A stretch of DNA of 64,000 nucleotides from an uncultured Alphaproteobacteria bacterium (lineage in GTDB: Bacteria > Pseudomonadota > Alphaproteobacteria > SHNJ01), in assembly GCA_964458615.1 (NCBI GenBank), contig CAYWJR010000001.1, positions 24,429 through 88,428 on the forward strand. The letters run 5' to 3'. Below are positions 22,924 to 60,508 of this stretch, one piece after another. A model generated the notes under the pieces. It had not been told where the DNA came from and made no database searches. It worked only from the letters and a program-made list of their open reading frames with translations. Within the stretch, counting starts at the first letter, position 1; each line of letters starts with the position of its first letter. Position numbers and translations under genes: made by a program.

Positions 22924-24183
22924 TTAACGGGAATCTCTAGCCCCCCTTAATCGCATAAGTTGCACCACATTGTCGTAAAAGAACGATACGGCAATACCAG
23001 TCATTAGCCACATTGTGAATCCCATGGGATAATTAGACTTGTTGGTATTGATGGTTAAAGCGGATGCAATAGTCGCTGAGAAAGCGGTAACAAAAGCGCT
23101 ACTCCCTACCCCCAACCATGTAGCCATCACAGAAGGCGGATTCATAGCAAGGTCTAATTCAACAGGATCCGGAAGTTCGTATTTTACCGCTGTGCTAGAA
23201 CCTGTATTGGCGGGTTGATATTCCACGGTTGGCACTGGCTTGGGTTGTGGCTGCGGAATGTTGCGTGGATTGGGTGTTACACTCGGTCTGCCATTTTTGC
23301 CCCTGGGTTGACGAGGCGCGAATTTTCCGCTGCCTGCGCAGCGCACCGTAATTTGCGCAGTCGCAGTTTCGGTTTCAACCAAATCCGTATGAATTCGATC
23401 AGCCAGTTTATGTAATTTTCCGTCTTCCGACGCCGGTACAATTTGTGAAATATGCGATTGAATTAAACGGCTAACTTGCGCCTTGCCTTGAACAGAAAAA
23501 GGAATTGCGAAATAATTACGCATCCCATTATGGCCTAATGGCGGACAATTTTCCTCTATCTTCCACAAACGGCATAAAAACAACAAATCATTTTTGAAAT
23601 CCGGATTTTTATTTAACAAACTTTGCAACCGCTCTGCTGCTTGGGATTCGCTTTTAATCCCGTAAAAATTTACGGCAACCTGCGCAAGACGCAAACTCAA
23701 CGCCTTTCTTTGCGGAAATTCCAGTAATTCTAAATAGGAATTTGGCAAAACATAATCGCGCTTGTTAATTCTGTCATTATTCGAATCCGCGATTGCGGCA
23801 GTGCCCGAATTCACACCCTGTTCCGATTTTGCCTTATAGGAAGGATGCAGAGTAAATGACCCGCGCATGGCATCGGTAACAAACCCTTGCGATACCAATG
23901 TGCTGGCTATTTTGCGAACCGCTTGGGGGTCCAATTTCGTGTTGGCTGCCGACGAAACAGGGCTGCTAAACATAACCACAACCGGATCATGACCCCGGTT
24001 TGCAAAAGAAATTTTTCCGCCATGCGCGGTATCTTCTGCAGCAAGGCCAAAAAAATCCAACGCGATTGCCAGTTCCGATACGGTAAAATCCAGCGGTACC
24101 GGTTTATGGAAAAGCCTCTCCAGTGCGGAAATTTGCTTGCGGTTTAAATTGACAGTCCGATTTACTGTTGCCGTTTTACTCAT
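22924..24183 (-). CDS. Hypothetical protein (419 aa) with two C-terminal TM helices; lineage-specific insertion.
   Basis: No recognisable domain. Pro-rich segment (PNPRNIPQPQPKPVPT). Flanked by AT-rich spacers (22763..22923, 24184..24295). Occupies the slot between ntrX and hfq where trkA usually sits in alphaproteobacteria. Confidence 0.5.
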   Translation of the reverse strand: MSKTATVNRTVNLNRKQISALERLFHKPVPLDFTVSELAIALDFFGLAAEDTAHGGKISFANRGHDPVVVMFSSPVSSAANTKLDPQAVRKIASTLVSQGFVTDAMRGSFTLHPSYKAKSEQGVNSGTAAIADSNNDRINKRDYVLPNSYLELLEFPQRKALSLRLAQVAVNFYGIKSESQAAERLQSLLNKNPDFKNDLLFLCRLWKIEENCPPLGHNGMRNYFAIPFSVQGKAQVSRLIQSHISQIVPASEDGKLHKLADRIHTDLVETETATAQITVRCAGSGKFAPRQPRGKNGRPSVTPNPRNIPQPQPKPVPTVEYQPANTGSSTAVKYELPDPVELDLAMNPPSVMATWLGVGSSAFVTAFSATIASALTINTNKSNYPMGFTMWLMTGIAVSFFYDNVVQLMRLRGARDSR

Positions 24184-24295
24184 ACCCTTGCCTTTTATTT
24201 ATGTTTTTTGGCAAAGTATCTATACAGCACACAAACGTCAAGACCCATTCTGTTAAGAATGGGTCCTAAACATTTGTAATATAATTATATTAAAC

Positions 24296-25786
24296 TTAGC
24301 TCGCTTGCGCCTTCGTCTCCGGCAACAACTCCCCCGCTTCGTTCGCGGCTCCGGATGTGTTGACACCAAGCGACTTCAACTTGCGGTGCAAGGCCGAACG
24401 TTCCATCCCGATAAAGGCCGCCGTGCGGGAAATATTGCCGCCAAAACGCGTGACTTGCGCCAACAAATATTCGCGTTCGAATACTTCGCGCGCATCCCGC
24501 AACGGCAATGTCATAATTTCAGCCGAGCGATCATGACGCATAATATCCGGCGTTGCCTGGGAAATGTCTGGTGGCAATAAATCCGCGCCGATCGGTTCCG
24601 ATGTCGCGCCGCCAGCCATGATCAAAACCCATTCAATCACGTTACGCAATTGGCGAACGTTGCCCGGCCAATCATAGGCCTGCAATGCCGCCAATGCATC
24701 GTCCGACAAACGGCGGGATGGCAAACCGGATGTTTCAGCCGCCCGTTCCATAAACGCCTTGGCAAGATCCGGAATATCCTCGCGCCGCAACGACAATGGA
24801 GGCACCTGAATCGGCACGACATTCAAACGGTAATACAAATCCTGGCGGAAACGGCCCTGCGCCATCAAATCCTGCAAATTGCGGTTGGTCGACGCAATCA
24901 CCCGTAAATCGACGCGGATCGGCGTATTGCCGCCGACGCGTTGGAACGTTTGATCCTGTAGCGCGCGGACGATTTTGCCTTGGGTTTCCAGCGGCATATC
25001 GGCTACTTCGTCTAAAAACAACGTGCCGGAATGCGCCATTTCTAAAACGCCGACTTTGCGGCTGACCTGGCCGGTTTCGGAATCTTTGCGGACTTCGGAA
25101 CCGAACAATTCGACTTCCAATCTGTCGGGACGCATCGTTGCGCAATTCAAAGCCACAAATGGCCCTGTGGCGCGGCGCGATTTTTGATGCAACATGCGCG
25201 CAACGACTTCTTTACCGGACCCGGCGGGGCCAGTGATCAACACACGGCTGTTGGTTGGGGCAACGCGTTCGATCGTTTGGCGAACCGTTTGAATAGTTTG
25301 TGATTTACCGGTTAATTCCGATTCCTTGGTATTATACTGGCGCAATTCTTCGATTTCACGGGTCATTTGCGCCGCCTGCAAGGCGTTGCGCACAACCAAC
25401 GACAAACGATCGGAATTGAACGGTTTGGAAATGAAATCATATGCGCCGATTTTTGTCGAACGAACCGCAGCTTCAATCGATCCATGCCCGGAAATCATCA
25501 CCGCAGGCAATGTAGGGTGTTCGCGTTTAATTTGTTCCAGCAATTGAATACCGTCCAATTTGCTGCCCTGAAGCCAAATATCCAAAATAACCAAAGACGG
25601 GCGTTTTTCACGAATCGCCTTGATCGCGTCGGTGTCGGTGCCAACGGTTCTGACGATATATTTTTTGTCTTTCTCGTCTTCAAGAACGCCCTTGATGCTT
25701 TCGCGAATATCCGCTTCGTCATCCACCACCAAAATATCGGGTTGAATGCCGGAATTGTCGTTTACGAATTCTAAATCGTCGCTCAT
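24296..25786 (-). CDS. ntrX: Sigma-54-dependent response regulator NtrX (REC, AAA+, Fis-type HTH).
   Basis: Receiver (ILVVDDEADIRE...LDIWL). AAA+ with Walker A GPAGSGKE and the sigma-54 interaction region. C-terminal HTH (GNISRTAAFIGMERSALHRKLKSLGV). Confidence 0.85.
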   Translation of the reverse strand: MSDDLEFVNDNSGIQPDILVVDDEADIRESIKGVLEDEKDKKYIVRTVGTDTDAIKAIREKRPSLVILDIWLQGSKLDGIQLLEQIKREHPTLPAVMISGHGSIEAAVRSTKIGAYDFISKPFNSDRLSLVVRNALQAAQMTREIEELRQYNTKESELTGKSQTIQTVRQTIERVAPTNSRVLITGPAGSGKEVVARMLHQKSRRATGPFVALNCATMRPDRLEVELFGSEVRKDSETGQVSRKVGVLEMAHSGTLFLDEVADMPLETQGKIVRALQDQTFQRVGGNTPIRVDLRVIASTNRNLQDLMAQGRFRQDLYYRLNVVPIQVPPLSLRREDIPDLAKAFMERAAETSGLPSRRLSDDALAALQAYDWPGNVRQLRNVIEWVLIMAGGATSEPIGADLLPPDISQATPDIMRHDRSAEIMTLPLRDAREVFEREYLLAQVTRFGGNISRTAAFIGMERSALHRKLKSLGVNTSGAANEAGELLPETKAQAS

Positions 25787-25877: not shown

Positions 25878-28061
25878 TTACGCCGCGTCGGCGTGATTTT
25901 CTTGTCCTAAATTTACACCCTGTTGTGCAAAGAACACAAGAGTAACTTTTGCACCACCTGAAATACTATCCCCAAGAAATAATTCGCCATGATGGTCTTC
26001 GACGATTTTTTTTACGATCGCCAAACCCAATCCGGTTCCTTTGGCGCGCGTTGTAACATACGGTTCAATCAAGCGTTCCCGGCCTTCTTTGGGGAAACCT
26101 TTGCCGTTGTCCGACACGATCAATGTGGTTTTATTTTCATCCGCCAAAATTTCGATATTTATTTTACCAGGTTCAGGCGAAACATTATCCACAGAATCTT
26201 TTGCCTCGATTGCTTCGGCGGCATTCTTCAAAAGATTGTTCAACGCCTGGCGCATCAAACTGGCATCGCAAACCAACTGCGCGCTGGATAAATCATGCGC
26301 ATCGACTTGGAATTGAATATTTTGATGCGCATTTTTTTGCAACAGCACCGAATCGCGTATAATCGCCAGCAGATTTTCCGATTTCATAACCGGGGTAGGC
26401 ATGCGCGCAAAAGACGAAAATTCGTCCAGCATACGCCCCAAATCTTCGACATGGCGAACGATGGTATCGGTGCAACTGACGAATGTTTCCGGGTCTTCGG
26501 CAATCTGCTTTAAATACTTGCGTTTTAACCGTTCCGCCGACAATTGGATCGGCGTCAATGGGTTGCGGATTTCATGCGCCAAACGCCGCGCCACATCCGC
26601 CCAAGCCGAGCTACGCTGTGCGATCAGCAATTGGGTAATATCGTCGAATGTCACGACCATGCCGCGAATGTCGTTTTCCGCCGTATCCATGCTGACACGC
26701 AACAATAACGTTCTGGTTTGACCGTCGTCCAGCGTCAGTTGAATTTGTTTTTCAAACGGCTTGTCGCGCCTTGTATTGTGCAAAACGCTTTCCAACGCTT
26801 CGTCCCATTCCGGCAAAACCAAACTTAGATTTTCGCCGATGTTTTTTTCAAGATCTACGTTCAACAATTCCGATGCGCGTTTATTCGGATATTGAATCCG
26901 CCCTTCGGAATCAAGACCGATCACCCCGGCGCTGACGCCGGATAAAACGACTTCGGTAAAACGGCGGCGCGCGTCGATTTGCCGGTTCGCTTCGATCAAC
27001 TCTCGGCGCTGTGTATCCAATTGATTGGTCATGCGGTTAAACGCCTTGGACAACAAACCGATTTCGTTGCTGCCCGGGGTTGGTTCCACCCGGACCGATA
27101 AATCGCCGGCCGCCACGCGTTCCGAAGCTTCGATCAAATCGCCCACGGGTTTGACCAATTTATTGGCGATATTCAATCCAACGCCGATCGCGCCGAATAA
27201 TAACAATAATGCGACCACCAAATAAATAATGGCGAATAATGCCTGCAAATCGTTGCGTTGGCCCGATAATTGTTCGAACGATTCGGCCGCTTCGCGGGTT
27301 TTTTCCATATGGCTAAGCACTGCGGAATCGATCAATCGCCCGACATACAAATACGCGCCAGGAATATTTTCCAATCGTACGATAGCGCGAACGCGGTCTT
27401 CGGTGTCATTGGTGAAAATCGCGACATCGCCCTGCTCCGCCTTGTCGATTATGTCTTTTGGAATGGGTTCGAATTCCAGGGAAAAAGTCAACGAAGACCG
27501 GGCATATACCCGGCCATTCGGATCGAATACAATCGCTTCGGCCAACGAACGCAACGCCGCGTGCGTTTCCAGAAATTTATTGAAAAAGGCCGTGTCGCCC
27601 AACAATTCGGTCGCCTCGCGGTTGATGTCGCCAGCCATGGTTTGAATATCCGCGCGAATGACTTCTTGGTGTTCGCGCAAATACGCCTCGGCCACGCTGC
27701 GCGATTCCAAAAGCGCGGTGTTGACTCTTTCGCTGAACCAGGCTTCGACGCCAAGATTGAAAAACACGGCGGAAAATCCAGCGACAAAAATTGTCGGCAC
27801 GACCGCAAGAAATCCAAGCAGCACCACAAGACGGGTGTGCAAACGCGATCCGGCCGGGTTGCGGCGGCGCGCCACCATCAATGTGGCAAGGCCGCGATAA
27901 ACGAAAAATCCAAGCACCAACAATATGCCCGCATTGATGGTCATCAATACTTTTACTTTGTATGGGTCCGGGCCATATGGCGGATTGCTGGTCAATGTGA
28001 CATAGGTCAAAACGCCGCTGGCCAGGGCTGCGAACGCGACGATCCAGCTTAGTTTGCGCAT
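25878..28061 (-). CDS. ntrY: Sensor histidine kinase NtrY (TM, HAMP, PAS, HisKA, HATPase).
   Basis: N-terminal TM helices. H-box LAHEIRNPLTPIQLSAERL. N/G boxes (NLLKNAAEA, DNGKGFP, GTGLGLAIVKKIVEDHHG). Start placed at MRKLSW (28061); 28124 is possible. Confidence 0.85.
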   Translation of the reverse strand: MRKLSWIVAFAALASGVLTYVTLTSNPPYGPDPYKVKVLMTINAGILLVLGFFVYRGLATLMVARRRNPAGSRLHTRLVVLLGFLAVVPTIFVAGFSAVFFNLGVEAWFSERVNTALLESRSVAEAYLREHQEVIRADIQTMAGDINREATELLGDTAFFNKFLETHAALRSLAEAIVFDPNGRVYARSSLTFSLEFEPIPKDIIDKAEQGDVAIFTNDTEDRVRAIVRLENIPGAYLYVGRLIDSAVLSHMEKTREAAESFEQLSGQRNDLQALFAIIYLVVALLLLFGAIGVGLNIANKLVKPVGDLIEASERVAAGDLSVRVEPTPGSNEIGLLSKAFNRMTNQLDTQRRELIEANRQIDARRRFTEVVLSGVSAGVIGLDSEGRIQYPNKRASELLNVDLEKNIGENLSLVLPEWDEALESVLHNTRRDKPFEKQIQLTLDDGQTRTLLLRVSMDTAENDIRGMVVTFDDITQLLIAQRSSAWADVARRLAHEIRNPLTPIQLSAERLKRKYLKQIAEDPETFVSCTDTIVRHVEDLGRMLDEFSSFARMPTPVMKSENLLAIIRDSVLLQKNAHQNIQFQVDAHDLSSAQLVCDASLMRQALNNLLKNAAEAIEAKDSVDNVSPEPGKINIEILADENKTTLIVSDNGKGFPKEGRERLIEPYVTTRAKGTGLGLAIVKKIVEDHHGELFLGDSISGGAKVTLVFFAQQGVNLGQENHADAA

Positions 28062-28110
28062 GACGTTATTGCGGCGTACCCACAATAAAAAGGACAGGAA
28101 GGAGGATGTT

Positions 28111-28428
28111 TTATGAATGGCCATGGTTTTTCTTTCTGACCGGAATGTTTAAAGCTTTGATCTTTTTGTGCAAGGTGTTGCGATTGATCCCAAGCATTTT
28201 TGCGGCGCGAATCCGGTTGCCGCGGCATTCCCGCAACGCATACATAATCAGCGGGCGTTCCACCTGCTGGATAACTTGGTCATAAAGCCCGCCATTTTCC
28301 GCCGGCGTGTTTTGATTGCTGGCGCCGCGCACGAAAAATTCAATCATGTCCCGCCATTCGTTTTGGTGCAGGGATTTTATCCCGTCATCGGATTCTATCG
28401 CCATCGCAACGGTGCTGTCTTGGGTCAT
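28111..28428 (-). CDS. Small Fis-family DNA-binding protein (105 aa; Fis/NtrC-C-terminal-type HTH).
   Basis: C-terminus LYDQVIQQVERPLIMYALRECRGNRIRAAKMLGINRNTLHKKIKALNI aligns with Fis ([47 protein letters not shown]) and the NtrC C-terminus. The ATG overlaps the dusB stop as TAATG. The upstream 43 codons of track ORF 28111..28557 lie inside dusB and are rejected. Confidence 0.6.
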   Translation of the reverse strand: MTQDSTVAMAIESDDGIKSLHQNEWRDMIEFFVRGASNQNTPAENGGLYDQVIQQVERPLIMYALRECRGNRIRAAKMLGINRNTLHKKIKALNIPVRKKNHGHS

Positions 28429-29456
28429 TATGCGGCCTGTTTGGACAATAACGGTTCGAAGAAATCGTCGATCATTTGCAATACCGCGTCCGGATCGGCC
28501 GACACATTCACCTTTGCCCGGAAATCGGCGGAATCGGGCAATCCCTTGCTGTACCATCCCAAATGTTTGCGCGCGATTTTCAATCCCGTGCCGATGCCGT
28601 AATGCGACAACATATCCTGATAATGGGTTTTAATAATCGCATATTTTTCATGCAATGGCGGATCGGGCAGTTTTTCGCCAGTTCGCCAATAATGAATGAC
28701 CTGATTTAAAAACCATGGCCGCCCATACGCCCCCCGCCCGATCATAACGCCGTCCGCCCCCGACGCATTCAATGCATTGTCGACATCGTCGAACGTGCAA
28801 ATATCGCCGTTGGCGATGACCGGCAATTTGGTCGCGCTTTTGACGGTTTGAATAAATGGCCAGTTTGCCTCGCCATTATAAAATTGGCATCGCGTGCGGC
28901 CATGCACGGTTATCATTTTAATCCCGGACTCTTCGGCGATTTTTGCGAATTTGGGCGCATTCAAATTGGTATCGTCCCAACCCATGCGCATTTTCATCGT
29001 CACCGGCAATTTCACCGCCCGCACGGTTTCTTCCATAATTTTACCGGCCAAAACTTCGTCGCGCATCAAATGGGATCCGGCATATCCATTAACCACTTTT
29101 TTCGCCGGGCAACCGAAATTAATATCGATAATCGCCGCGCCCGAATCCTCGTTCAATTTGGCGGCATCGGCCATCACATCCGGTTCGCACCCCGCCAATT
29201 GAACGGACATCGGAAATTCTTCGGGCAGATTTTTTGCCATCAATTGCGATTTGCGGCATTCGCGGATCATCGCCTGGCTGGCGATCATTTCCGATACCAC
29301 AAGCCCCGCACCCTGGCGTTTTACCAATTTACGGAATGGCAGATCGGTAACGCCCGACATCGGCGCCAAAATGACCGGATTCGAAATTTGAACCGATCCT
29401 ATGTTGAACCCAGGTAATTTCGTGCCCGGATTGATATTGTTGGTTTTTTCAGTCAT
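28428..29456 (-). CDS. dusB: tRNA-dihydrouridine synthase B (NifR3 family).
   Basis: TIM-barrel Dus motifs (LAPMSGVTDLPFR, DINFGCPAKKV with the catalytic Cys, MITVHGRTR). Confidence 0.9.
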   Translation of the reverse strand: MTEKTNNINPGTKLPGFNIGSVQISNPVILAPMSGVTDLPFRKLVKRQGAGLVVSEMIASQAMIRECRKSQLMAKNLPEEFPMSVQLAGCEPDVMADAAKLNEDSGAAIIDINFGCPAKKVVNGYAGSHLMRDEVLAGKIMEETVRAVKLPVTMKMRMGWDDTNLNAPKFAKIAEESGIKMITVHGRTRCQFYNGEANWPFIQTVKSATKLPVIANGDICTFDDVDNALNASGADGVMIGRGAYGRPWFLNQVIHYWRTGEKLPDPPLHEKYAIIKTHYQDMLSHYGIGTGLKIARKHLGWYSKGLPDSADFRAKVNVSADPDAVLQMIDDFFEPLLSKQAA

Positions 29457-29530
29457 TAATTGCCCAATTTTTAGGCATAATAGATAATTATCGTTTATTT
29501 TGCAAGCATTTATGGTAAACCCCTAAATCT

Positions 29531-32825: not shown

Positions 32826-33398
32826 TTAATCGGAAATGACTTGCGGCGCCGCTCTCATAACGACTTGAGGCGGAGGTGGCGGCGGCGGTGGTGGCGGTGG
32901 AGGCGGTGAAGCAACAGCTGTTGTCACTTTTACAGTATGCGTGACAGTTGCCGTTTGGCTTGGTGTCGATGGTGCTGGCGCCGAATAACTAGGCGTAGGC
33001 GACGGAATTACGGGAGTTACAGAAGATACCGTTGTCGTTGGCGCCGAATTACCAGTGGTAGGTCTTGTCGCAGTAACAACTGGCCTTACTGGCCGAACCA
33101 CGGCTGCGGATGCGCGTTGTAAATTGTTGTTATATGCATATGACGATTTCGATGGCGCGATCTTGCTAAAAGATATATTGCGCCCCTGCACTTCGGATAC
33201 TGCGCCCGATTGGTCGCCTGTGCTTGAATTCATTAATCGGCGCAACGGGTTTTGCGCAGCCTGATTGACGCCCGAATTCCGGTTATTGCGGTAATTTGTT
33301 GAATAATAATTTTGATCTTGCTGTGCATAGGCATCGGCGATTGGCGATAAAATCAATACCGCCATAATCAAAATTAGATGTCTCATAACCCTGTTCAT
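32826..33398 (-). CDS. Secreted low-complexity protein with a poly-proline (~P13) tract.
   Basis: Signal peptide MRHLILIMAVLILSPIADAYA. Asn/Ser/Thr/Pro-rich. C-terminal ...ASPPPPPPPPPPPPPQVVM encoded by a GGN/CCN simple repeat at about 32868..32906. Confidence 0.6.
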   Translation of the reverse strand: MNRVMRHLILIMAVLILSPIADAYAQQDQNYYSTNYRNNRNSGVNQAAQNPLRRLMNSSTGDQSGAVSEVQGRNISFSKIAPSKSSYAYNNNLQRASAAVVRPVRPVVTATRPTTGNSAPTTTVSSVTPVIPSPTPSYSAPAPSTPSQTATVTHTVKVTTAVASPPPPPPPPPPPPPQVVMRAAPQVISD

Positions 33399-33647: not shown

Positions 33648-36362
33648 ATGAGCAGATCCAGGCTTCCAGCAGCAATCGAAAAAAAAGATTGCGGTTTATT
33701 GCCGCCCCGAATTTTTGATAATTCCGGGATCGTTGCCGTTGTAACAGATTCCGAAAATATAATTACCGATTGCAATCAAGCCGCCACCGATTTTTTCTCG
33801 CAAAATCATAACGACTTAGCAGGGGAAAATTTGCTGGCTCTGATCGACAATGGCGACAGAATATTTATCGAAAGCCTGGCCGCCAAAATAATCGATGGAA
33901 GCAAAAAAAATATCCAGTTAGAAAAACCGGTAATGGTTATATCCGAATCCGGATTCCAGGAAAAATGGATCCGCATCGATTGCAATATTTATGGATCAGA
34001 CAATAAATATCTTATCTATTTAATTCAGGATATTACCGCGCAACAAAAATCCGCAATCAAAGAAAAACAAACGGAAAAGAATCTAAACAATATTTTGTCC
34101 GCCATGGCGGATGGTTTTTTATTATTCGACTCCAACGGCCAATTGTTGGATTTCAGCCCGTCTATACACGATCTGTTTCCGCAAGTGCAGCAAAGCCTGA
34201 TCCCCAAAATGCATATCGCCGAGGTGTATAGCAAAATTATATACTCGCAAAATATAATTGACGCGCTTGATAACGAACAAACTTATTTACAAGAATGGCA
34301 AACCAAACAGATAACCGGGTCGTACAAATTATTTTTCAAACATAAAAATCAGAAAAATTATCTGCTGCAATACCACCAATCTCCGAACCAATCTATTTTA
34401 ACATTTACCGACGTCACGATGATCCGGGAAAAAGAAACGTTGCTGGCCACATTGGCGTCGGAAAATTCGCATTTGTCCAAAGCGGTCGACGCCACCCAGG
34501 TCGGCATCGCCATTTGCGATGCGCGATTGCCGTTAAAACCAATTATATATTTCAACCACGCCTTTCATACAATCGTCGGGCACGCCGCCGAGAAAGTAAT
34601 CGGCGAGAATATCGGTGTTTTATTCAATGCCGAAAGCGACCAAACGGCGATACGGCAAATCGAATCAGCATTGGAAAACAACGCCGTCGCGGACGTTGAA
34701 ACGAAAGCGGTCGACGCAGGCCACCGGACATTTTGGTGCCATATTCAAATCAATCCGATTATCGACGTAACGGGAATTTGCACCCATTTTGTTTTGATGC
34801 TGACCGACATCAGCCGGCGCAAAAATCAAGAACAGGAATTGATTCAGGCAAAGCGCGCCGCCGATGAGGCAAACAAGGCGAAATCCCAATTCCTTGCGAT
34901 TATGAGCCATGAAATCAAAACACCTATCAATGGCGTTATGGGCATGGTCGATTTATTGATGACATCGAATCCAAATGAAAAGCAGCAGCAATTTTTATCC
35001 ACGGCGAAAGAATCAGCCGGAAAATTGCTTGGACTTGTAAACGATATTCTGGATTATTCGGATTTGGAATCGAACCATTTGGCCATAAAACCGAAACCGG
35101 TGGATTTAAACGAATTGATACGCCGGTCATTGGCCGACATCAAAGAAGACGCGTTTAAAAAGAATCTAAGCCTGCAATTTTTGCTGGATCCCAAAATACC
35201 CAAAAAATTGTATGGCGACCCGGATCGTATTGCCCAAATCGTGCGCAATATTGTCGGAAATTCAATTAAATTTACCGAACGCGGCCATATCGAAGTACAT
35301 CTAAATCTGCTTTCGGAAACAAACAAAACGGCAAAATTGCAATTGAAAATCATCGATACAGGAATTGGAATTGCGCCGGACAAACTAAATTCCATTTTCG
35401 ATCCGTTTCACCAAATCGATTTATCGTTTACCAGAAAATACAGCGGCACCGGTCTTGGGCTTGCGATCTGCAAAAAACTGCTACAATTGATGCACGGCGA
35501 CATCAGCGCCAAAAGCACGCTTGGATCAGGCACAACGATCAATTGCACGCTGTCCCTGCCCCTGCACCCGCCGGAACATAGTGTAAATGGAAATTCAGAA
35601 GGCAAAACAACCAATAAAAAGAAAATATTGATTGTCGACGACAGCATGACAAACCGTATGATCCCGGCCAGCTTGCTGCGACCTTATGGATTTGAAATTC
35701 ACGAAGCCGATGGCGGAAAAAAAGCCATCGATCTGGCATCGACCCACGATTACGATTTGATATTGATGGATATTGCCATGCCCGAAATCGACGGCATCGC
35801 GGCGACACGCGCCATTATATCCGCAAAACCTGGGCGCCAGGTAAAAATAATCGCCATTACCGCGCATTCGTCGGAACAGGAAAAAACCAAATGCATTCGC
35901 GCCGGGATGATCGATTATTTAACCAAACCGGTTGATAAAGAAAAGTTATTGGCGGCCTGTTTTAACGTTATGAATATTTCATTTAAAAACGGTGGTGTCA
36001 TGGAAAACAAAAATATGTTGGATGAAACGATATTGCACCAATTGGAAAACGATATTGGCGATAAAACATTGCGAACATTGCTGGATGCGTTTATCGAAGA
36101 AACCGTGGAGCGGTTAAAATTGATCCGCCAATTCAGCCGCGAACAAAAATGGGAATATTTGGGCCGCGAAGGCCACACGTTAAAATCCACCAGTGGCAGT
36201 TTCGGACTTATGACGTTATGCGATAAATCATCGCAATTGGATGAATTGTGCCGCACGCAAAATTACATCCAGGCTGAACTGACCGCGGCGGAAATCGCCA
36301 ATATGGGCGGCGAATGCATCGGAACATTGCGCAAATGGATGGTGGAAAAACTGCCTAATTAA
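33648..36362 (+). CDS. Hybrid sensor histidine kinase/response regulator with PAS domains, HisKA, HATPase, receiver and C-terminal Hpt domain (tripartite ArcB/BarA/TorS-like architecture).
   Basis: H-box LAIMSHEIKTPINGV. G boxes (DTGIGIA, GTGLGLAICKKL). REC (ILIVDDSMTNR...LILMDIAMPEIDG...TKP). Hpt (HTLKSTSGSFG). Confidence 0.85.
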   Translation: MSRSRLPAAIEKKDCGLLPPRIFDNSGIVAVVTDSENIITDCNQAATDFFSQNHNDLAGENLLALIDNGDRIFIESLAAKIIDGSKKNIQLEKPVMVISESGFQEKWIRIDCNIYGSDNKYLIYLIQDITAQQKSAIKEKQTEKNLNNILSAMADGFLLFDSNGQLLDFSPSIHDLFPQVQQSLIPKMHIAEVYSKIIYSQNIIDALDNEQTYLQEWQTKQITGSYKLFFKHKNQKNYLLQYHQSPNQSILTFTDVTMIREKETLLATLASENSHLSKAVDATQVGIAICDARLPLKPIIYFNHAFHTIVGHAAEKVIGENIGVLFNAESDQTAIRQIESALENNAVADVETKAVDAGHRTFWCHIQINPIIDVTGICTHFVLMLTDISRRKNQEQELIQAKRAADEANKAKSQFLAIMSHEIKTPINGVMGMVDLLMTSNPNEKQQQFLSTAKESAGKLLGLVNDILDYSDLESNHLAIKPKPVDLNELIRRSLADIKEDAFKKNLSLQFLLDPKIPKKLYGDPDRIAQIVRNIVGNSIKFTERGHIEVHLNLLSETNKTAKLQLKIIDTGIGIAPDKLNSIFDPFHQIDLSFTRKYSGTGLGLAICKKLLQLMHGDISAKSTLGSGTTINCTLSLPLHPPEHSVNGNSEGKTTNKKKILIVDDSMTNRMIPASLLRPYGFEIHEADGGKKAIDLASTHDYDLILMDIAMPEIDGIAATRAIISAKPGRQVKIIAITAHSSEQEKTKCIRAGMIDYLTKPVDKEKLLAACFNVMNISFKNGGVMENKNMLDETILHQLENDIGDKTLRTLLDAFIEETVERLKLIRQFSREQKWEYLGREGHTLKSTSGSFGLMTLCDKSSQLDELCRTQNYIQAELTAAEIANMGGECIGTLRKWMVEKLPN

Positions 36363-38488
36363 GGCGTTTGAACTATTGTTCGTTCTTTGGGCATGTGGAT
36401 CGTAACCTTGGTTCCTTGATTCAGTCCGCTTTCCAAAATAATCGTGCCGCCGTGCATTTCCACCAGCGATTTGGTAATCGGCAACCCAAGCCCTGTTCCT
36501 TTGTATCTGCGGCTAATTTGGCTGTCGACTTGAATGAACGGCTCCATGGCGCGCGCAATGCTGTCGGGTTCCATGCCCACGCCATGATCCTGTATCGAAA
36601 CCGAAATCCCCATATCTTCGCGCAGCCAAAATTTAATTTCTATGCTGCCGCCGTCGCTGCTGAATTTTACCGCATTCGATACCAAATTGGTGAATATTTG
36701 CGTCATCGCGCGTTCATCCGCGTTCAATTTCGGCAAATTCTGCGGCATATCGATAAACAACTGAATGCCCGCGTTTTGCATTTCAATTTCAACGAAACTT
36801 TGTACCCGCGCCAATATATCGCTTAGAACCAATGGCGTGCTATTCAAATCCAGCTTGCCTTCTTCCATTTTGGACAGATCCAGAATGTCTTTGATCAAAT
36901 TCAACAAATGCTGACCGCTTTTGAAAATATGTTCCGAATATTCGACATATTTCGCATTGCCCAATGCGCCTAAAATTTGCGTTTGCATCGCTTCGGAAAA
37001 ACCCATAATGGCGTTTAACGGCGTGCGCAATTCATGGCTTACATTGGCCAGAAACCGGGATTTCGTCTTACTGGCCATCAACGCCGCATCTTTGGCCGTA
37101 CGCATTTCCTTGACCGCCTTTTCCCGTTTTTGGGTTTCGGAATTGAATTTATCAAGGATCATATTGTATTGCATGGCGATCGTGCCCGCCTCTGTTTCCT
37201 GCTCGACATCGACAGGGCGAGTAAAATCGCCCTCTTGGCGTTGGCGTTCCATTTCCTGCAATAATTTAAACAACGACGTATTCGCGCCATGTTCCGCCAC
37301 GTTTAATCCGATGCGTTCGGATTCGGGGTCGACGCGCAGCGCGAAAAACCGGTCGATTACCGCCAAACAAATGAATCCGACGGTGAAAGAATATGCACCG
37401 ATACTGACGATACCCAAAAATTGTACGCCCAATTGTTCCATGCGGGTAAGGCCGGAATCGAATGCCGTTGTCGGCGCGAATAACGCAACCGCCAACGTAC
37501 CCCAAATCCCCGCGAATAAATGCGCGGGAACGGCATTGATAACATCGTCGATTTGCAATTTTAACAATAATTCGCAGCCCGCATAACACACCATCGCGCC
37601 GATCATGCCGATAATGATCGCTGCATATGGCGTAATAACATGCGCGCATGCCGATATACTAACCAATCCAGCGACAACGCAACTGATCGATCGGATGACG
37701 TTTGGCCGGCCTTTAAAATGCCAAGATAACGCCAATGCGGTCAAACCGCCAATCGCGCCGCCCAATGCCGTATTCAAAATAACCAATGGCACATCGCCGG
37801 TGAATTGGGGCAACGACCCGCCGGTAAATCCGAACCAGCCCACCCACAACAACATCAATCCCAATGTCGCTTTGGGTAAATCGCTGCCTTCGATTTCGGT
37901 GCCTTGCGGGCCGAACCGGCCGATGCGCGGCCCGATAATAATCAATGCCGCCAGCGCCATCCAGCCGCCGACCGAGTGAACCACGGTCGATCCCGCGAAA
38001 TCGATGAATCCCAAACTGACCAGCCAGCCGGAACTGGTATCCGGAATCGACCCCCCCCACGCCCAATGGCCGGCGACGGGATAAATCAATCCTGATAAGA
38101 TGCAGGAACAAAACACATAACCGGTAAAACGGATCCGTTCGGCCACAGCGCCCGAAACGATGGTGGTGGCAATGGCGCAAAACGCCATCTGGAAAAGAAA
38201 GAAAGAATACAGCCACGAAGATGCGGTATCGCCGAATACAAAATAACTTCCGCCTATTATGCCGTTTTGGCTGGCGCCAAACATAATGCCAAACCCAAAC
38301 AGCCAGAATAACAAAGACGCGATACAAAAATCGACGACGTTCTTACCGGCGACATGGATGCTGTTTTTCGCGCGCACCAATCCGCTTTCAAGGCAAGTAA
38401 AACCCGCCTGCATCATGATGACCAGAATGGCGCAGAAAACCAGCCAGAAAATATCGAAATATTCGGATAAACCTTCTACCAAAATCAA
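36359..38488 (-). CDS. Ammonium transporter (Amt) domain fused to a histidine kinase (Amt-HK sensor).
   Basis: N-terminal ~400 aa is a typical Amt/MEP channel (about 11 TM helices; ...DFAGSTVVHSVGGWMALAALIIIGPRIGRF...). This is followed by an H-box (LANVSHELRTPLNAIMGFSE) and an HATPase_c domain (GTGLGLPITKSLVEMHGG). No receiver domain. 4-nt convergent overlap with the hybrid kinase. Confidence 0.8.
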   Translation of the reverse strand: MILVEGLSEYFDIFWLVFCAILVIMMQAGFTCLESGLVRAKNSIHVAGKNVVDFCIASLLFWLFGFGIMFGASQNGIIGGSYFVFGDTASSWLYSFFLFQMAFCAIATTIVSGAVAERIRFTGYVFCSCILSGLIYPVAGHWAWGGSIPDTSSGWLVSLGFIDFAGSTVVHSVGGWMALAALIIIGPRIGRFGPQGTEIEGSDLPKATLGLMLLWVGWFGFTGGSLPQFTGDVPLVILNTALGGAIGGLTALALSWHFKGRPNVIRSISCVVAGLVSISACAHVITPYAAIIIGMIGAMVCYAGCELLLKLQIDDVINAVPAHLFAGIWGTLAVALFAPTTAFDSGLTRMEQLGVQFLGIVSIGAYSFTVGFICLAVIDRFFALRVDPESERIGLNVAEHGANTSLFKLLQEMERQRQEGDFTRPVDVEQETEAGTIAMQYNMILDKFNSETQKREKAVKEMRTAKDAALMASKTKSRFLANVSHELRTPLNAIMGFSEAMQTQILGALGNAKYVEYSEHIFKSGQHLLNLIKDILDLSKMEEGKLDLNSTPLVLSDILARVQSFVEIEMQNAGIQLFIDMPQNLPKLNADERAMTQIFTNLVSNAVKFSSDGGSIEIKFWLREDMGISVSIQDHGVGMEPDSIARAMEPFIQVDSQISRRYKGTGLGLPITKSLVEMHGGTIILESGLNQGTKVTIHMPKERTIVQTP

Positions 38489-56747: not shown

Positions 56748-58094
56748 TTACCGTTCCGTCAGGGCATTATGTTTTGCTTTGAAAAACGGTTTCAACAAAT
56801 AATCCAAAACCGTTTTCGATCCCGTCAACACGTCCACCTGGGCGGTCATGCCGGGAATAATAGGCAGGCTTTTGGTGTTGCCCTTGAACGTGTTGCCATA
56901 GGTACGCAATTTTACCAGATAAAAACTTTCCCCGCGTTCGTCGACGATAGTATCGGGGGAAATATGTTCTACTTTTGCTTTTAAACCGCCATAAATCGAA
57001 AAATCATAAGCGGTAATTTTCACCATGGCTTCTTGATCCGGGCGGATAAAGGCGATGTCGGATGGGCGGATTTTCGCCTCGACCAGCAAATTATCTTCGA
57101 TCGGAACGACCTCGACCAAATCTTCGCCGGGCTTTATGACGCCGCCGACGGTGTTAATTTTGATTTGTTTAACGGTTCCTTTTAATGGGGAACGCACTTC
57201 GGTTCTGGCCACCCGGTCGCGCGATGCCGTTATGCTTTGGGTCAATGCGTTTAACTCGCCGCGCTTTTGATTCAATTCATTCGATACTTCGGAACGGAAA
57301 GTTTGTTTTTTATCCTCTACCCTTTGGCGCGCTTCTTCCATCGCAACGCGGGCGCGCGGTTGCGCTGCCTTGGCCTGGTTCATGCGCGATTCCAATTCGG
57401 TAATTTCGCGTTCGATGCTTAGCAGTTCCATACGCGATGTAACGCCTTGTTGCACGCCCTTGCTGGCGATTTCTTTTTGTTGATACGCAACATCCAGGGA
57501 TTTTTTGGTGCTCTCGGCGCTGGTGTATAATTCGGACAATTCCTGTTGTTTCTGTGAAACCTGCGATTGGAAAATATCCAACTGGCCGCGCAATTGCGAT
57601 TGGCGCGATTGGTAAAGCGCCATTTCGCTTTTTACCGCATCGGATGCTTCGTCAATAACTTCTTTTGGGAATGCCAATGGCTTGCCTTCGTATTCCGCGT
57701 TCAGGCGCGATATAGTCGCAATCAACGACAAATATTTGCTGCGCGCCGTTTTATAATCCGCCTGCGCATAGGTATTGTCGATGATCAGCATCACTTCGTC
57801 TTTTTCGACCATCTGGCCTTCGCGAACCAGGATTTTGTTGATAATGCCGCCCTCCAGGTTCGATACGACCTGAATATGGCTCGAGGTGATGATTTTCCCC
57901 TGCCCGCGCGTTACTTCGTCGACGCTGGCAAAAGCAGCCCACAGCAAGAACACCACAAAGAATAAACTGATACACAAAAGCAATATATGCGAAGCCATGC
58001 GCGCGCCGCGATGCGATGCCGCGAATCTCTCCGGCATAAAATCGGTTTCTTCTTCGTGCACCCGCAAATATTCTTTGGCAATTTCTTTTAACAT
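56748..58094 (-). CDS. hlyD: Type I secretion system membrane fusion protein (HlyD family).
   Basis: N-terminal TM anchor, long coiled-coil, lipoyl-like and beta-barrel regions typical of HlyD. Immediately downstream of the ABC exporter. Confidence 0.85.
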   Translation of the reverse strand: MLKEIAKEYLRVHEEETDFMPERFAASHRGARMASHILLLCISLFFVVFLLWAAFASVDEVTRGQGKIITSSHIQVVSNLEGGIINKILVREGQMVEKDEVMLIIDNTYAQADYKTARSKYLSLIATISRLNAEYEGKPLAFPKEVIDEASDAVKSEMALYQSRQSQLRGQLDIFQSQVSQKQQELSELYTSAESTKKSLDVAYQQKEIASKGVQQGVTSRMELLSIEREITELESRMNQAKAAQPRARVAMEEARQRVEDKKQTFRSEVSNELNQKRGELNALTQSITASRDRVARTEVRSPLKGTVKQIKINTVGGVIKPGEDLVEVVPIEDNLLVEAKIRPSDIAFIRPDQEAMVKITAYDFSIYGGLKAKVEHISPDTIVDERGESFYLVKLRTYGNTFKGNTKSLPIIPGMTAQVDVLTGSKTVLDYLLKPFFKAKHNALTER

Positions 58095-58116
58095 TCTATT
58101 CCTCGGTTTCCGACCG

Positions 58117-60339
58117 TTAGGTGGACTTTACTTCGCCGTCTTTAAGGGAATTCAAAACTTGGTCGCGCGGCCCGTCGGCAACGACCTTGCCATCGCTCAT
58201 CACAATCAACCGATCGACAATCGATAACATCGATGCGCGGTGTGTGACCACAATGACTGTTTTATCTTTCATAACCTGCGCCAAACGCGCCTTGAAACGA
58301 TTTTCCGAACCGGGATCCATGGAACTGGTCGGTTCATCCAAAACCAAAATCGGCGGATCCAGCAACAAAGAACGCGCCAAGGCAATCGATTGGCGTTGAC
58401 CACCCGAAAGCCCTTCACCGCGCTCGCCGATATTCAAATCATAACCCAACGGATGATGGCGCAGGAAATCGGTAACACCGGCCATTGTTCCCGCGGTCAA
58501 TAACGCGCGGTCATCGGCGCCCGTTCGGCCCATGATGATATTTTCCTTTACCGTGCCGTAAAATAAAAATACGTCCTGCGGGCAAATGCCGATATTACGC
58601 CGTAAATCCGCCGGATCGATTTGGCGAACATCGGTGCCGTCGATCGTTACAGAACCTTCTTGGGGTTCGTACAAAGCCATCATCAATTTTTCAAGCGTGG
58701 TTTTACCCGATCCAATCGGCCCGATAATGCCGACTTTTTCACCCGGTTCGATCCGGAAATTGCATTGGTTCAGCGCCTTTGTCCGTTGGCCTGGATACGC
58801 AAACGTGACGTTACGGAATTCGATTTGGCCGCGCAAATGCGGACGGCTTAGGAATGCTTTGCCAGCCGGGCGTTCGACCGGCAATTGCATAAATTCATCC
58901 AATGTTTCAAGCGCCGATTCGCTTTGGTGAAAACGGGTCAATAATCCGGCGATTTGCCCCAAAGGCGCAGTTGCGCGCCCCGCCAAAATAACCGCCGCGA
59001 TCAGGGCGCCGGTTGTAATCGACCCAGCCGCAACCAAATATGCGCCGACAATAACGATCATGACCGTTACCATGTAGTTGGCAAACACGGTGAAATTCAA
59101 AACCGCCGAAGACAGGCTGTGCGCATGCATGGCGGATTTGGATGTTTTACCGACGAAACTTTCCCATAAACGCTGCATATATCCTTCGGCACCCATCTTT
59201 TTAATCGTTTCAAGGCCGGTAATGGATTCCACAAGCAACGCGCTTTTTTGCGACGATTCACGGAAAGTTTCTTTGACGATGCGATTCAGTGGACGTTGCA
59301 TGTAAAACGCGACGCCCATAATGATCGGAATGGCGATCAACGGAACCAATGCCAGCCATCCGCCGATTAATGCGATTACCAAAATATACAAAAACAAAAA
59401 TGGCAAATCGACCAATGTGACCAATGTGGCCGAAGTATAAAATTCCCGCAAATGTTCGAATTCGCGCAAATGCCCGGCCAATGCGCCGGCCGATGGCGGG
59501 CGCGATTCCATTTTCATGCCCAGCAATTGTTCGAACAGTTTACTGGAAATCAATGTGTCCGCACCGCGTCCGGTTAAATCCAAAAAATATGCGCGCAGCG
59601 ATCGGATAATAAAATCGAAAACAAATACGATCATCACGCCAACCGCCAAAACCCACAACGTTTCCATGGCATTGTTGGGGATAACGCGGTCATACACGTT
59701 CATCGTGAATAATGGTGCCGCCAGCGCGAATAAATTGATCATCAATGCCGCAAAGGCGACTTCGACATACATGCTTTTGAAACGGCGCAAGGTGCCCCAG
59801 AACCAGCCCGCTTTTTCCGGTTCTTCCAAACCTTGTGCGCGCGGGTCGTAACGGAATTCGGGTTTGGCAAAAATGGCGTATCCTGTGAACGAAGATTCCA
59901 AATCGCGCATGGCGATTTGCTGAACCCCGCCGGTTTCAGGCAAAATAATTTCCGCCTTATCGCCGATAACGCCAACATAAACGCATGAACGGCGATCTTT
60001 TAACAACAATATGCACGGCAGCAACATCGGATTAATATCCGGCAAATTGCGCACCATCAGCCGCGCGGAAATACCTGCGCGTTGTGCCGAACGGATAAAC
60101 AACGCGGGCGACATGCCCATTTCCGAAATCGGCAATCCGGCCGCCAACGCCTCGCGCGATTGCGGGCGATCCAGCAATTTACAAATAATATGCAGACAAT
60201 TTAGCAGAACGTCTTCGGCATTGCTGACCGACGGGGTAACGCGCCAAACTTGGCGCGCCGAATCGCCGCTGTCTTTGGATTGATCGGACGGCTGGTTGCC
60301 GGAAAAAGATGGGTCTTTATTTGAATCGCCAGATTGCAC
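58117..60339 (-). CDS. hlyB: Type I secretion system permease/ATPase (HlyB family) with N-terminal C39-like domain.
   Basis: C39-like domain (CLHIICKLLDRP...). Six TM helices. ABC module with Walker A GPIGSGKTT, signature LSGGQRQ, Walker B ILVLDEPTS. Confidence 0.9.
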   Translation of the reverse strand: MQSGDSNKDPSFSGNQPSDQSKDSGDSARQVWRVTPSVSNAEDVLLNCLHIICKLLDRPQSREALAAGLPISEMGMSPALFIRSAQRAGISARLMVRNLPDINPMLLPCILLLKDRRSCVYVGVIGDKAEIILPETGGVQQIAMRDLESSFTGYAIFAKPEFRYDPRAQGLEEPEKAGWFWGTLRRFKSMYVEVAFAALMINLFALAAPLFTMNVYDRVIPNNAMETLWVLAVGVMIVFVFDFIIRSLRAYFLDLTGRGADTLISSKLFEQLLGMKMESRPPSAGALAGHLREFEHLREFYTSATLVTLVDLPFLFLYILVIALIGGWLALVPLIAIPIIMGVAFYMQRPLNRIVKETFRESSQKSALLVESITGLETIKKMGAEGYMQRLWESFVGKTSKSAMHAHSLSSAVLNFTVFANYMVTVMIVIVGAYLVAAGSITTGALIAAVILAGRATAPLGQIAGLLTRFHQSESALETLDEFMQLPVERPAGKAFLSRPHLRGQIEFRNVTFAYPGQRTKALNQCNFRIEPGEKVGIIGPIGSGKTTLEKLMMALYEPQEGSVTIDGTDVRQIDPADLRRNIGICPQDVFLFYGTVKENIIMGRTGADDRALLTAGTMAGVTDFLRHHPLGYDLNIGERGEGLSGGQRQSIALARSLLLDPPILVLDEPTSSMDPGSENRFKARLAQVMKDKTVIVVTHRASMLSIVDRLIVMSDGKVVADGPRDQVLNSLKDGEVKST

Positions 60340-60446
60340 GTAATTCTCCCTATCCTATTGAATATAGAGAAAACACCCCAAATTGGTAAGAAGGAAGTAG
60401 CAATTGGGTGCAATAGCCAAAATATAGTTTCCTAATTGCTACTGAA

Positions 60447-60480
60447 CAATACAAAGAAAGAGCACCGCTTTCGCGGTGCT
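60447..60480 (-). terminator. Intrinsic terminator downstream of the RTX gene.
   Basis: Hairpin agcaccgc-tttc-gcggtgct, followed on the minus strand by CTTTCTTTGTATTG. Confidence 0.45.
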
Positions 60481-60508
60481 GAGGTAGGTTCGGTAGAGAA
60501 AACTTGGA

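Follow-up and report, generated by a model that had tools for sequence, protein, structure and literature searches.

What kind of gene stands between dusB and ntrY in a 64,000-nucleotide stretch of DNA from an uncultured alphaproteobacterium (contig CAYWJR010000001.1 of assembly GCA_964458615.1, positions 24,429 to 88,428; hereafter the window), at the place where ntrB and ntrC would be expected? The gene encodes only 105 amino acids (aa), and its product resembles Fis. Fis (factor for inversion stimulation) is a central nucleoid protein of enterobacteria, abundant, DNA-bending and under growth-phase control, and in Gamma- and Betaproteobacteria it is encoded in a dusB-fis operon. To our knowledge, Alphaproteobacteria are usually said to lack it. 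A preliminary description of the window left two readings side by side: an independent Fis-like protein captured downstream of dusB, or a remnant of ntrC retained after the loss of ntrB and most of ntrC. Here, we argue that the 105-aa open reading frame (ORF) is probably a real and conserved gene, created in situ by a deletion that joined ntrB to ntrC, and that it encodes the C-terminal domain of NtrC only, as a Fis-like protein that arose in parallel. In our best reading, the small gene was not captured as a fis, nor is it a remnant in decay.

On the minus strand of the window, the genes run in the order dusB, the 105-aa ORF, ntrY, ntrX, a 419-aa ORF, hfq and hflX, and ispDF is divergent from dusB. 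The features that matter for the argument are the following:

28428..29456, minus strand: dusB (nifR3), tRNA-dihydrouridine synthase B, 342 aa, the operon's first gene (Pfam Dus, 9e-100; TIGR00737)
28426..28430, minus strand: TAATG, dusB stop and small-ORF start, translational coupling site (read directly)
28111..28428, minus strand: the 105-aa gene, free-standing NtrC-type DNA-binding/dimerisation domain, Fis-like (HTH_8, 1.2e-15)
28153..28269, minus strand: HTH_8 helix-turn-helix core, residues 54-92, RPLIMYALRECRGNRIRAAKMLGINRNTLHKKIKA (Pfam)
28111..28124, minus strand: last 14 nucleotides (nt) of the small ORF, shared with the longest ntrY frame from its first ATG (sequence)
25878..28124, minus strand: ntrY, sensor histidine kinase (NtrY_N 2.4e-43, HAMP, PAS, HisKA, HATPase_c)
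24296..25786, minus strand: ntrX, response regulator with REC, AAA+ and HTH_8 (NF051870, 682 bits, cut-off 600)

The small ORF consists of 105 codons and a TAA stop (28113..28111), and its translation is the same as the peptide given in the preliminary description. Its start on the dusB stop, also part of that description, can be read directly: the minus strand has GCA TAA TG ACC, where the last base of the dusB TAA (28430..28428) is also the first of the small-ORF ATG (28428..28426). A longer frame of 148 aa from an ATG at 28557 was rejected because it would share 130 nt with dusB, the protein called by gene callers has 105 aa and the homologues start at the dusB stop. At the 3' end, an alternative ntrY start at Met22 (~28061, the gene caller's choice on an identical contig) leaves a 49-nt spacer after the small ORF. 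The dusB product scores 403 bits against TIGR00737 (nifR3_yhdG, cut-off 293) and is 66% identical to DusB of Dongia soli and 44% identical to that of E. coli.

The statement that ntrY-ntrX are intact and that ntrB and ntrC are gone was confirmed within the window by domain scans and by tblastn. With NtrB and NtrC of Dongia soli as queries, tblastn found no ntrB or ntrC in the 64 kb; its matches were limited to NtrY, NtrX, a further kinase and the small ORF, which aligns with NtrC residues 418-499 at 48% identity. Pfam scans of 20 further large ORFs of the window returned housekeeping genes, two sensor kinases, a secretion cluster and nothing else. The gene arrangement is not an assembly artefact, since identical DNA is present in two independent Logan assemblies and ten further assemblies, among them a complete Zymomonas chromosome, have the same gene order.

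That the product is essentially a free-standing helix-turn-helix of the Fis/NtrC type, as first proposed, is supported far above chance. Pfam detects HTH_8 only (E=1.2e-15; 57 bits, cut-off 22), with no receiver domain and no AAA+ sigma-54 domain. Residues 12-93 correspond to model positions 386-463 of 463 in the NCBIfam ntrC equivalog (TIGR01818; 54.5 bits, cut-off 558.6), and residues 13-93 to positions 15-95 of 98 in the NCBIfam Fis model NF001659 (PRK00430; 55.1 bits, cut-off 99). The beta-type short Fis model NF002517 gives 54.9 bits, below its cut-off of 122. Judged by these profiles, the small protein is a stand-alone copy of the domain common to NtrC and Fis, and it passes the threshold of neither family.

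One earlier impression has to be given up, namely that the arrangement is confined to one genome: many uncultured Alphaproteobacteria share the operon, and so does Zymomonas mobilis. A search with the single sequence returned 68 relatives, mostly HTH_8-only proteins of 75-125 aa, with an identical protein (P0001) in NCBI and Logan. A profile of 13 relatives retrieved 7940 proteins at E<=1e-8, and the best 120 of these are all HTH_8-only proteins of 85-123 aa, which are unnamed, annotated as 'helix-turn-helix domain-containing protein' or labelled 'GlnG' by JGI; many members carry the last label although they have no receiver and ATPase domains. Genomic context was read for ten distinct clusters (the window protein; GCA_004295055.1; ERZ1758447; GCA_049653105.1; GCA_964494535.1; Zymomonas mobilis subsp. 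pomaceae CP002865; GCA_964786265.1; GCA_037975565.1; JGI 3300035696; ERZ12293692). Synteny in these relatives bears the arrangement out, with the order dusB-small ORF-ntrY in 10/10 clusters, ntrX next wherever the contig continues, and junctions on both sides of the small ORF that are mostly overlaps of 4 or 8 nt. The same order was found by genome scan in a Rhodospirillaceae metagenome-assembled genome (MAG; locus L057), and in locus L040, dusB lies 5' of the small ORF and the contig ends short of ntrY. The window protein has all the traits of this group (85-125 aa, HTH_8 only, between dusB and ntrY-ntrX with start/stop overlaps). The dusB-linked small HTH_8 proteins are a large, poorly annotated and apparently unnamed alphaproteobacterial family; our literature search found no paper on a dusB-linked Fis-like gene in Alphaproteobacteria, in an incomplete library, so that this is absence of evidence only.

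Where did the family come from? In contigs taken as one genome per species, most of the best 80 matches to the small-protein profile are the C-termini of full-length NtrC. The loci of these NtrC proteins read ispDF<>dusB-ntrB-ntrC-ntrY-ntrX-(hfq-hflX) and come from Acetobacteraceae, Caulobacterales, Rhodobacterales, Sphingomonadales and others. The canonical order assumed in the preliminary description is therefore the one seen in most of these loci, and it has also been reported for nine alphaproteobacteria (PMC13001219). It follows that the small ORF sits exactly at the slot of the ntrC 3' end. It occupies the same position 5' of ntrY, and the small protein is colinear with the last ~80 residues of alphaproteobacterial NtrC at 40-66% identity; it differs from NtrC in having no receiver or AAA+ sigma-54 domains and no partner kinase NtrB at the locus. 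The 5' end of the gene fits the same slot. In 36/52 canonical loci, ntrB starts on the dusB stop within GC(G/C)GC-ATGA or -GTGA, and the same GC(G/C)GCATGA junction starts the small ORF in 7/11 of its loci, often with a Met-Ser beginning. The simplest account of both ends would be an internal deletion in an ancestral dusB-ntrB-ntrC-ntrY-ntrX operon, reaching from just past the ntrB start, through nearly the whole of ntrB, to about codon 385-415 of ntrC, and sparing the ntrB start site that overlaps the dusB stop. The result would be an ntrB'-'ntrC fusion, still coupled to dusB, with ntrYX directly after.

The constant company of ntrYX invites another account, according to which the small protein is an accessory of NtrYX that tunes its output, e.g. 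by forming a heterodimer with the HTH_8 domain of NtrX or by competing at NtrX sites. Indeed, ntrY is always the next gene (with ntrX where the contig continues) in every alphaproteobacterial locus examined, often through overlaps of 4-8 nt, and NtrX bears the same domain family. However, this linkage goes back to the ancestral operon and does not by itself imply a functional tie, and the window protein scores only 28-38 bits against NtrX C-termini, a distant similarity that makes a mixed dimer less likely. We regard such an accessory role as unlikely, and return to the derivation from ntrC.

Similarity scores also bear on the idea of capture, i.e. that the gene is a true fis orthologue acquired horizontally from a beta- or gammaproteobacterium, as a dusB-fis operon or as fis alone, in place of ntrBC. 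Some observations suit this idea: the gene lies 3' of dusB, as in E. coli, the Fis models score as well as the ntrC model, and the closest solved structures by sequence and fold are those of Fis. Yet both Fis equivalog cut-offs are missed widely, and NtrC C-termini are closer than the Fis and Fis-like proteins compared. The window protein gives 63-73 bits against 69 NtrC C-termini and a median of 74 against the alphaproteobacterial small family, compared with 53 for E. coli Fis and 56 for two Fis-like proteins of the beta/gamma type. E. coli Fis, for its part, does not distinguish between the small ORFs (median 63 bits) and the C-termini of alphaproteobacterial NtrC (64 bits), and therefore reveals no specific tie of the small family to the Fis lineage. 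Moreover, the DusB, NtrY and NtrX proteins of the window group with Alphaproteobacteria in trees.

The structural resemblance to Fis can be explained without orthology. An AlphaFold2 model of the small protein, built on 46 homologues, predicts four helices (14-38, 48-67, 72-79 and 83-93) and no strands, with a mean pLDDT of 78.5 that rises to 90-96 for residues 51-90. Foldseek against the PDB ranks E. coli Fis first (target-normalised TM 0.75-0.78, rmsd ~2-3 A, 71-72 columns, 35-37% identity; for 1ETY, TM 0.78 normalised in the same way, rmsd 1.9 A, 72 columns), followed by NtrC4, P. aeruginosa Fis and the DNA-binding domains of NtrX. By sequence, the nearest solved protein is likewise Fis (E=2.6e-10), with Salmonella NtrC (1NTC) at E=0.004. 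This ranking does not show orthology because the PDB holds no alphaproteobacterial NtrC DNA-binding domain.

Compared directly, the two proteins share a size of ~100 aa, four helices (A-D), a C-terminal HTH_8, a basic isoelectric point (pI; 9.7 for the window protein), equivalents of the Fis residues R85, T87, K90 and K91 (window GINRNTLHKK) and a gene directly after dusB, with a 25-nt dusB-fis spacer in E. coli versus the TAATG overlap in the window. They differ in that the window protein is only ~33-38% identical to Fis, falls at 55 bits against the cut-off of 99, lies nearer to NtrC DNA-binding domains than to Fis, has its gene followed by ntrYX and has no N-terminal beta-hairpin in the model. 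The residues aligned to that hairpin are modelled as coil or as the start of helix A, with a pLDDT of only ~53, and the N-terminus is unconserved among homologues. The missed cut-offs, the scores nearer to NtrC, the alphaproteobacterial neighbours and the NtrC signature of the Zymomonas copy (see below) make a captured fis highly improbable. Apparently, the window gene is an independent, parallel derivation within Alphaproteobacteria, separate from Fis.

The preliminary description had also invoked the idea that Fis arose from the C-terminus of NtrC, and this is a proposal in the literature (Morett & Bork 1998, as cited in PMC2831072 and PMC7482072). The model requires an intermediate with dusB followed by the NtrC C-terminus only, which is the architecture of the present locus. 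This model puts the truncated gene in the gammaproteobacterial ancestor after lateral transfer, whereas here the truncated form exists within extant Alphaproteobacteria and is still joined to ntrYX.

The truncation seems to have happened more than once. In neighbour-joining (NJ) marker trees (DusB+NtrY+NtrX, 1416 columns; DusB+NtrY, 968 columns; segments derived by tblastn, midpoint rooting), the window and GCA_004295055.1 form a first group of bearers (100%), sister (78%) to two MAGs with full ntrBC (L054, L065). A second group (100%) comprises seven MAG loci, every one with the small ORF. The third is Zymomonas, whose sister is a Sphingosinicellaceae genome that has full ntrBC (99-100% bootstrap). 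At least two independent truncations are well supported, because Zymomonas stands beside a Sphingomonadales lineage with intact ntrBC. The Zymomonas small protein carries the helix-A signature of Sphingomonadales NtrC, YFA.FG.LPPDG, and its gene appears to be independently derived from the NtrC of that order. The first two groups have a cysteine signature in common, their separation is moderately supported, and they may go back to one shared event.

That signature, (E/Q)C(R/Q)GNQ, precedes helix C and was followed in loci L003, L057, L084, L086, L088 and L093-L096. It reads ECRGNQ or QCRGNQ in most members and RECRGNR in the window, and it is not found in the Zymomonas copy. The cysteine is residue 68 of the window protein (~28225-28227), where NtrC (ATRGNQ) and Fis (YTRGNQ) have threonine. 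The first two groups may have inherited it from a common ancestor, or it may be a trait under selection in proteins that consist of this domain only. The small proteins also differ from NtrC in a longer and more basic tail after the recognition helix (medians of 21 residues and a net charge of +6, versus 16 residues and +3 for NtrC), and their median pI is 10.1.

Zymomonas mobilis provides a cultured and genetically tractable bearer. Its 104-aa HTH_8 protein (CP002865) is encoded between nifR3 and ntrY, the same operon position as in the window and with the same domain, but with only ~34% overall identity, an 11-nt spacer after dusB and ~140 nt before ntrY. Z. mobilis has been reported to use NtrXY, not NtrBC (PMC8600466). 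In strain ZM4, the accession numbers run nifR3 Q5NNF9, ntrY Q5NNG1 and NtrX (ZMO1124) Q5NNG2, and from this order the small gene is presumably Q5NNG0/ZMO1126. We found no mention of it in papers, within an incomplete library. Two ZM4 regulators of the 'Fis family', ZMO1124 and ZMO1816, were considered as the small gene and rejected, as they are NtrX and NifA. ZM4 also has a sigma-54 activator (bacterial enhancer-binding protein) named ntrC, Q5NP86, away from the dusB locus (PMC8600466 supplement).

Conservation argues that the gene is kept for what it encodes. Between bearers, the proportion of synonymous differences (pS) is 0.63-0.78, i.e. saturated, and that of nonsynonymous differences (pN) is 0.18-0.33; pN/pS is ~0.3 and the corrected ratio, dN/dS, is 0.15-0.25 where dS can be corrected. 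Saturated pS against low pN therefore indicates purifying selection. Positions E57, P59, L60, N71, A76 and LG-NRNTL-K are among those invariant across 46 sequences, and 13 small homologues all share the motifs VERPL, GN, AA and LGINRNTL-K. Of the positions at which Fis contacts DNA, the small family conserves R85, T87 and K90, and the window clade has His for R89. That the gene is a non-functional leftover, a 3' fragment of a deleted ntrC still open by chance and without a role, would suit the poorly conserved N-terminal ~45 residues (between clades) and the presumed ZM4 orthologue going undetected in one proteome, but is very hard to reconcile with a frame open at 87-123 aa in every locus examined across synonymous-saturated lineages, with the selection just described, and with an invariant DNA-contact motif, a maintained start-codon coupling to dusB and a family signature of its own (ECRGNQ). 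Of the two initial readings, then, derivation from ntrC in place is favoured by the slot, the start site, the alphaproteobacterial neighbours and the scores nearer to NtrC, and capture of Fis is not; the word 'remnant' is misleading for a conserved gene under purifying selection in a large family.

Several points weigh against this derivation from ntrC or temper it. The window junction is TAATG and not ATGA, and the relative L003 has TAAAATG; both are slight variants. The shared ATGA junction itself could partly reflect the conserved C-terminus of DusB (Ala-Ala-stop), not inheritance of the ntrB start. Pairwise scores favour NtrC C-termini, but the NJ tree of the 88-column helix-turn-helix domain (small ORFs, NtrC C-termini, Fis and NtrX) has deep bootstraps below 50. 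Descent from the local NtrC is therefore beyond proof by sequence alone, and our case is built on synteny, marker trees and pairwise scores. The absence of ntrBC is established for the 64-kb window, not for the whole genome. In the structural model, confidence is low for the first 13 residues and for the tail at the C-terminus. The presumed ZM4 orthologue, ZMO1126/Q5NNG0, is absent from the proteome tables of PMC8600466, which cover one proteome. Finally, the deletion mechanism, dimerisation, DNA binding and physiological role are all inferred.

What might such a protein do? Without the receiver and AAA+ domains, it should neither be phosphorylated by NtrB nor remodel the sigma-54 holoenzyme. 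The parts retained would be the dimerisation helix and the helix-turn-helix of NtrC, the same as those composing Fis. We picture a small basic homodimer that would bind and bend DNA at NtrC- or Fis-like sites. Its role could be that of a passive repressor, of an architectural factor or, as for Fis, of a global regulator, presumably expressed with DusB and NtrYX. Stimulation of the Hin and Gin invertases, for which Fis needs its N-terminal beta-hairpin arm, would not be expected if the hairpin is missing, as it is in the model. In Caulobacter, NtrC has dozens of sites, its ChIP-seq motif resembles the E. coli Fis motif, and >70% of its sites coincide with those of the nucleoid protein GapR (bioRxiv 10.1101/2023.06.06.543975).

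The window also encodes, at 36359-38488 on the minus strand, a 709-aa fusion of an ammonium transporter (Ammonium_transp, 3.7e-113) and a HisKA/HATPase_c histidine kinase. A hybrid kinase of 904 aa (PAS/HisKA/REC/Hpt; 33648-36362, plus strand) is encoded convergently with it, and the same pair lies near the locus in L003. In a lineage whose dusB locus has no ntrBC, the fusion might serve as another means of sensing nitrogen.

Two further features would mark the ends of the operon:

29477..29505, minus strand: weak sigma-70-like promoter match 5' of dusB, in the ispDF/dusB spacer (TTGCAA-17-TATTAT, 9/12)
24238..24269, minus strand: weak terminator-like hairpin with a 14-bp stem just past the ntrX stop, likely operon end (hairpin scan)

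Both are positional suggestions, as the promoter/terminator scan of the region gave a site total no higher than in shuffles. Between ntrX and hfq, the 419-aa ORF (22924-24183, minus strand) has no Pfam or NCBIfam match; it is kept on the identical Logan contig and missing in the close relative L003, where hfq directly follows ntrX. A 190-aa ORF (32826-33398, minus strand) has a signal-peptide-like hydrophobic N-terminus and a Ser/Thr/Pro-rich body with 12 uninterrupted prolines, with no Pfam hit according to the gene callers. A type I secretion cluster (56748-63421, minus strand) encodes an HlyD-family adaptor, a C39-peptidase ABC exporter and a 970-aa protein with seven stretches of RTX nonapeptide repeats. 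No rRNA was found in the 64-kb window.

Some related observations come from outside the window. A second set of free-standing HTH_8 proteins of ~95-145 aa (loci L012 and L038 of Bdellovibrionales MAGs; proteins P0013, P0016, P0020, P0037) includes one annotated as 'site-specific DNA inversion stimulation factor'. Free NtrC/Fis-type domains thus also occur beyond the dusB context, since L012 and L038 have no dusB, ntrY or ntrX within 6 kb. Four proteins of 146-160 aa (P0030, P0038, P0048, P0054), one of them from a 35-kb contig of a Candidatus Binatia MAG, join an AAA+ lid domain to HTH_8; they may be enhancer-binding proteins truncated less severely, or else fragments cut off where a contig ends. 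In L094 (GCA_037975565.1, 7369-9594), ntrY is called as three successive ORFs (NtrY_N; HAMP-PAS; HATPase_c), a pattern that points to frameshifts or errors in sequencing; both ntrX and the small ORF (123 aa) of this locus are intact.

Taken further, these loci might mean that Alphaproteobacteria have repeatedly made their own Fis-like, DNA-bending global regulators by deleting ntrB and the 5' part of ntrC, and that one such operon, truncated beforehand, could have been the source of Fis in beta- and gammaproteobacteria; we offer this as a speculative and rather doubtful extension. The family raises questions of its own. Can the freed domain of an enhancer-binding protein serve as a nucleoid protein? 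Are the NtrC sites still occupied? And what has replaced nitrogen control by NtrBC? As Zymomonas mobilis is a bearer, the functional consequences are testable by genetics. Until now, the birth of Fis from NtrC (Morett & Bork 1998) has been argued from sequence similarity and the dusB/nifR3 neighbour only. The loci described here show that the required step, in which ntrB and the receiver and ATPase parts are lost and dusB is followed by the free DNA-binding domain, occurs in the proposed donor class, that it became fixed and is maintained by selection, and that it was taken more than once.

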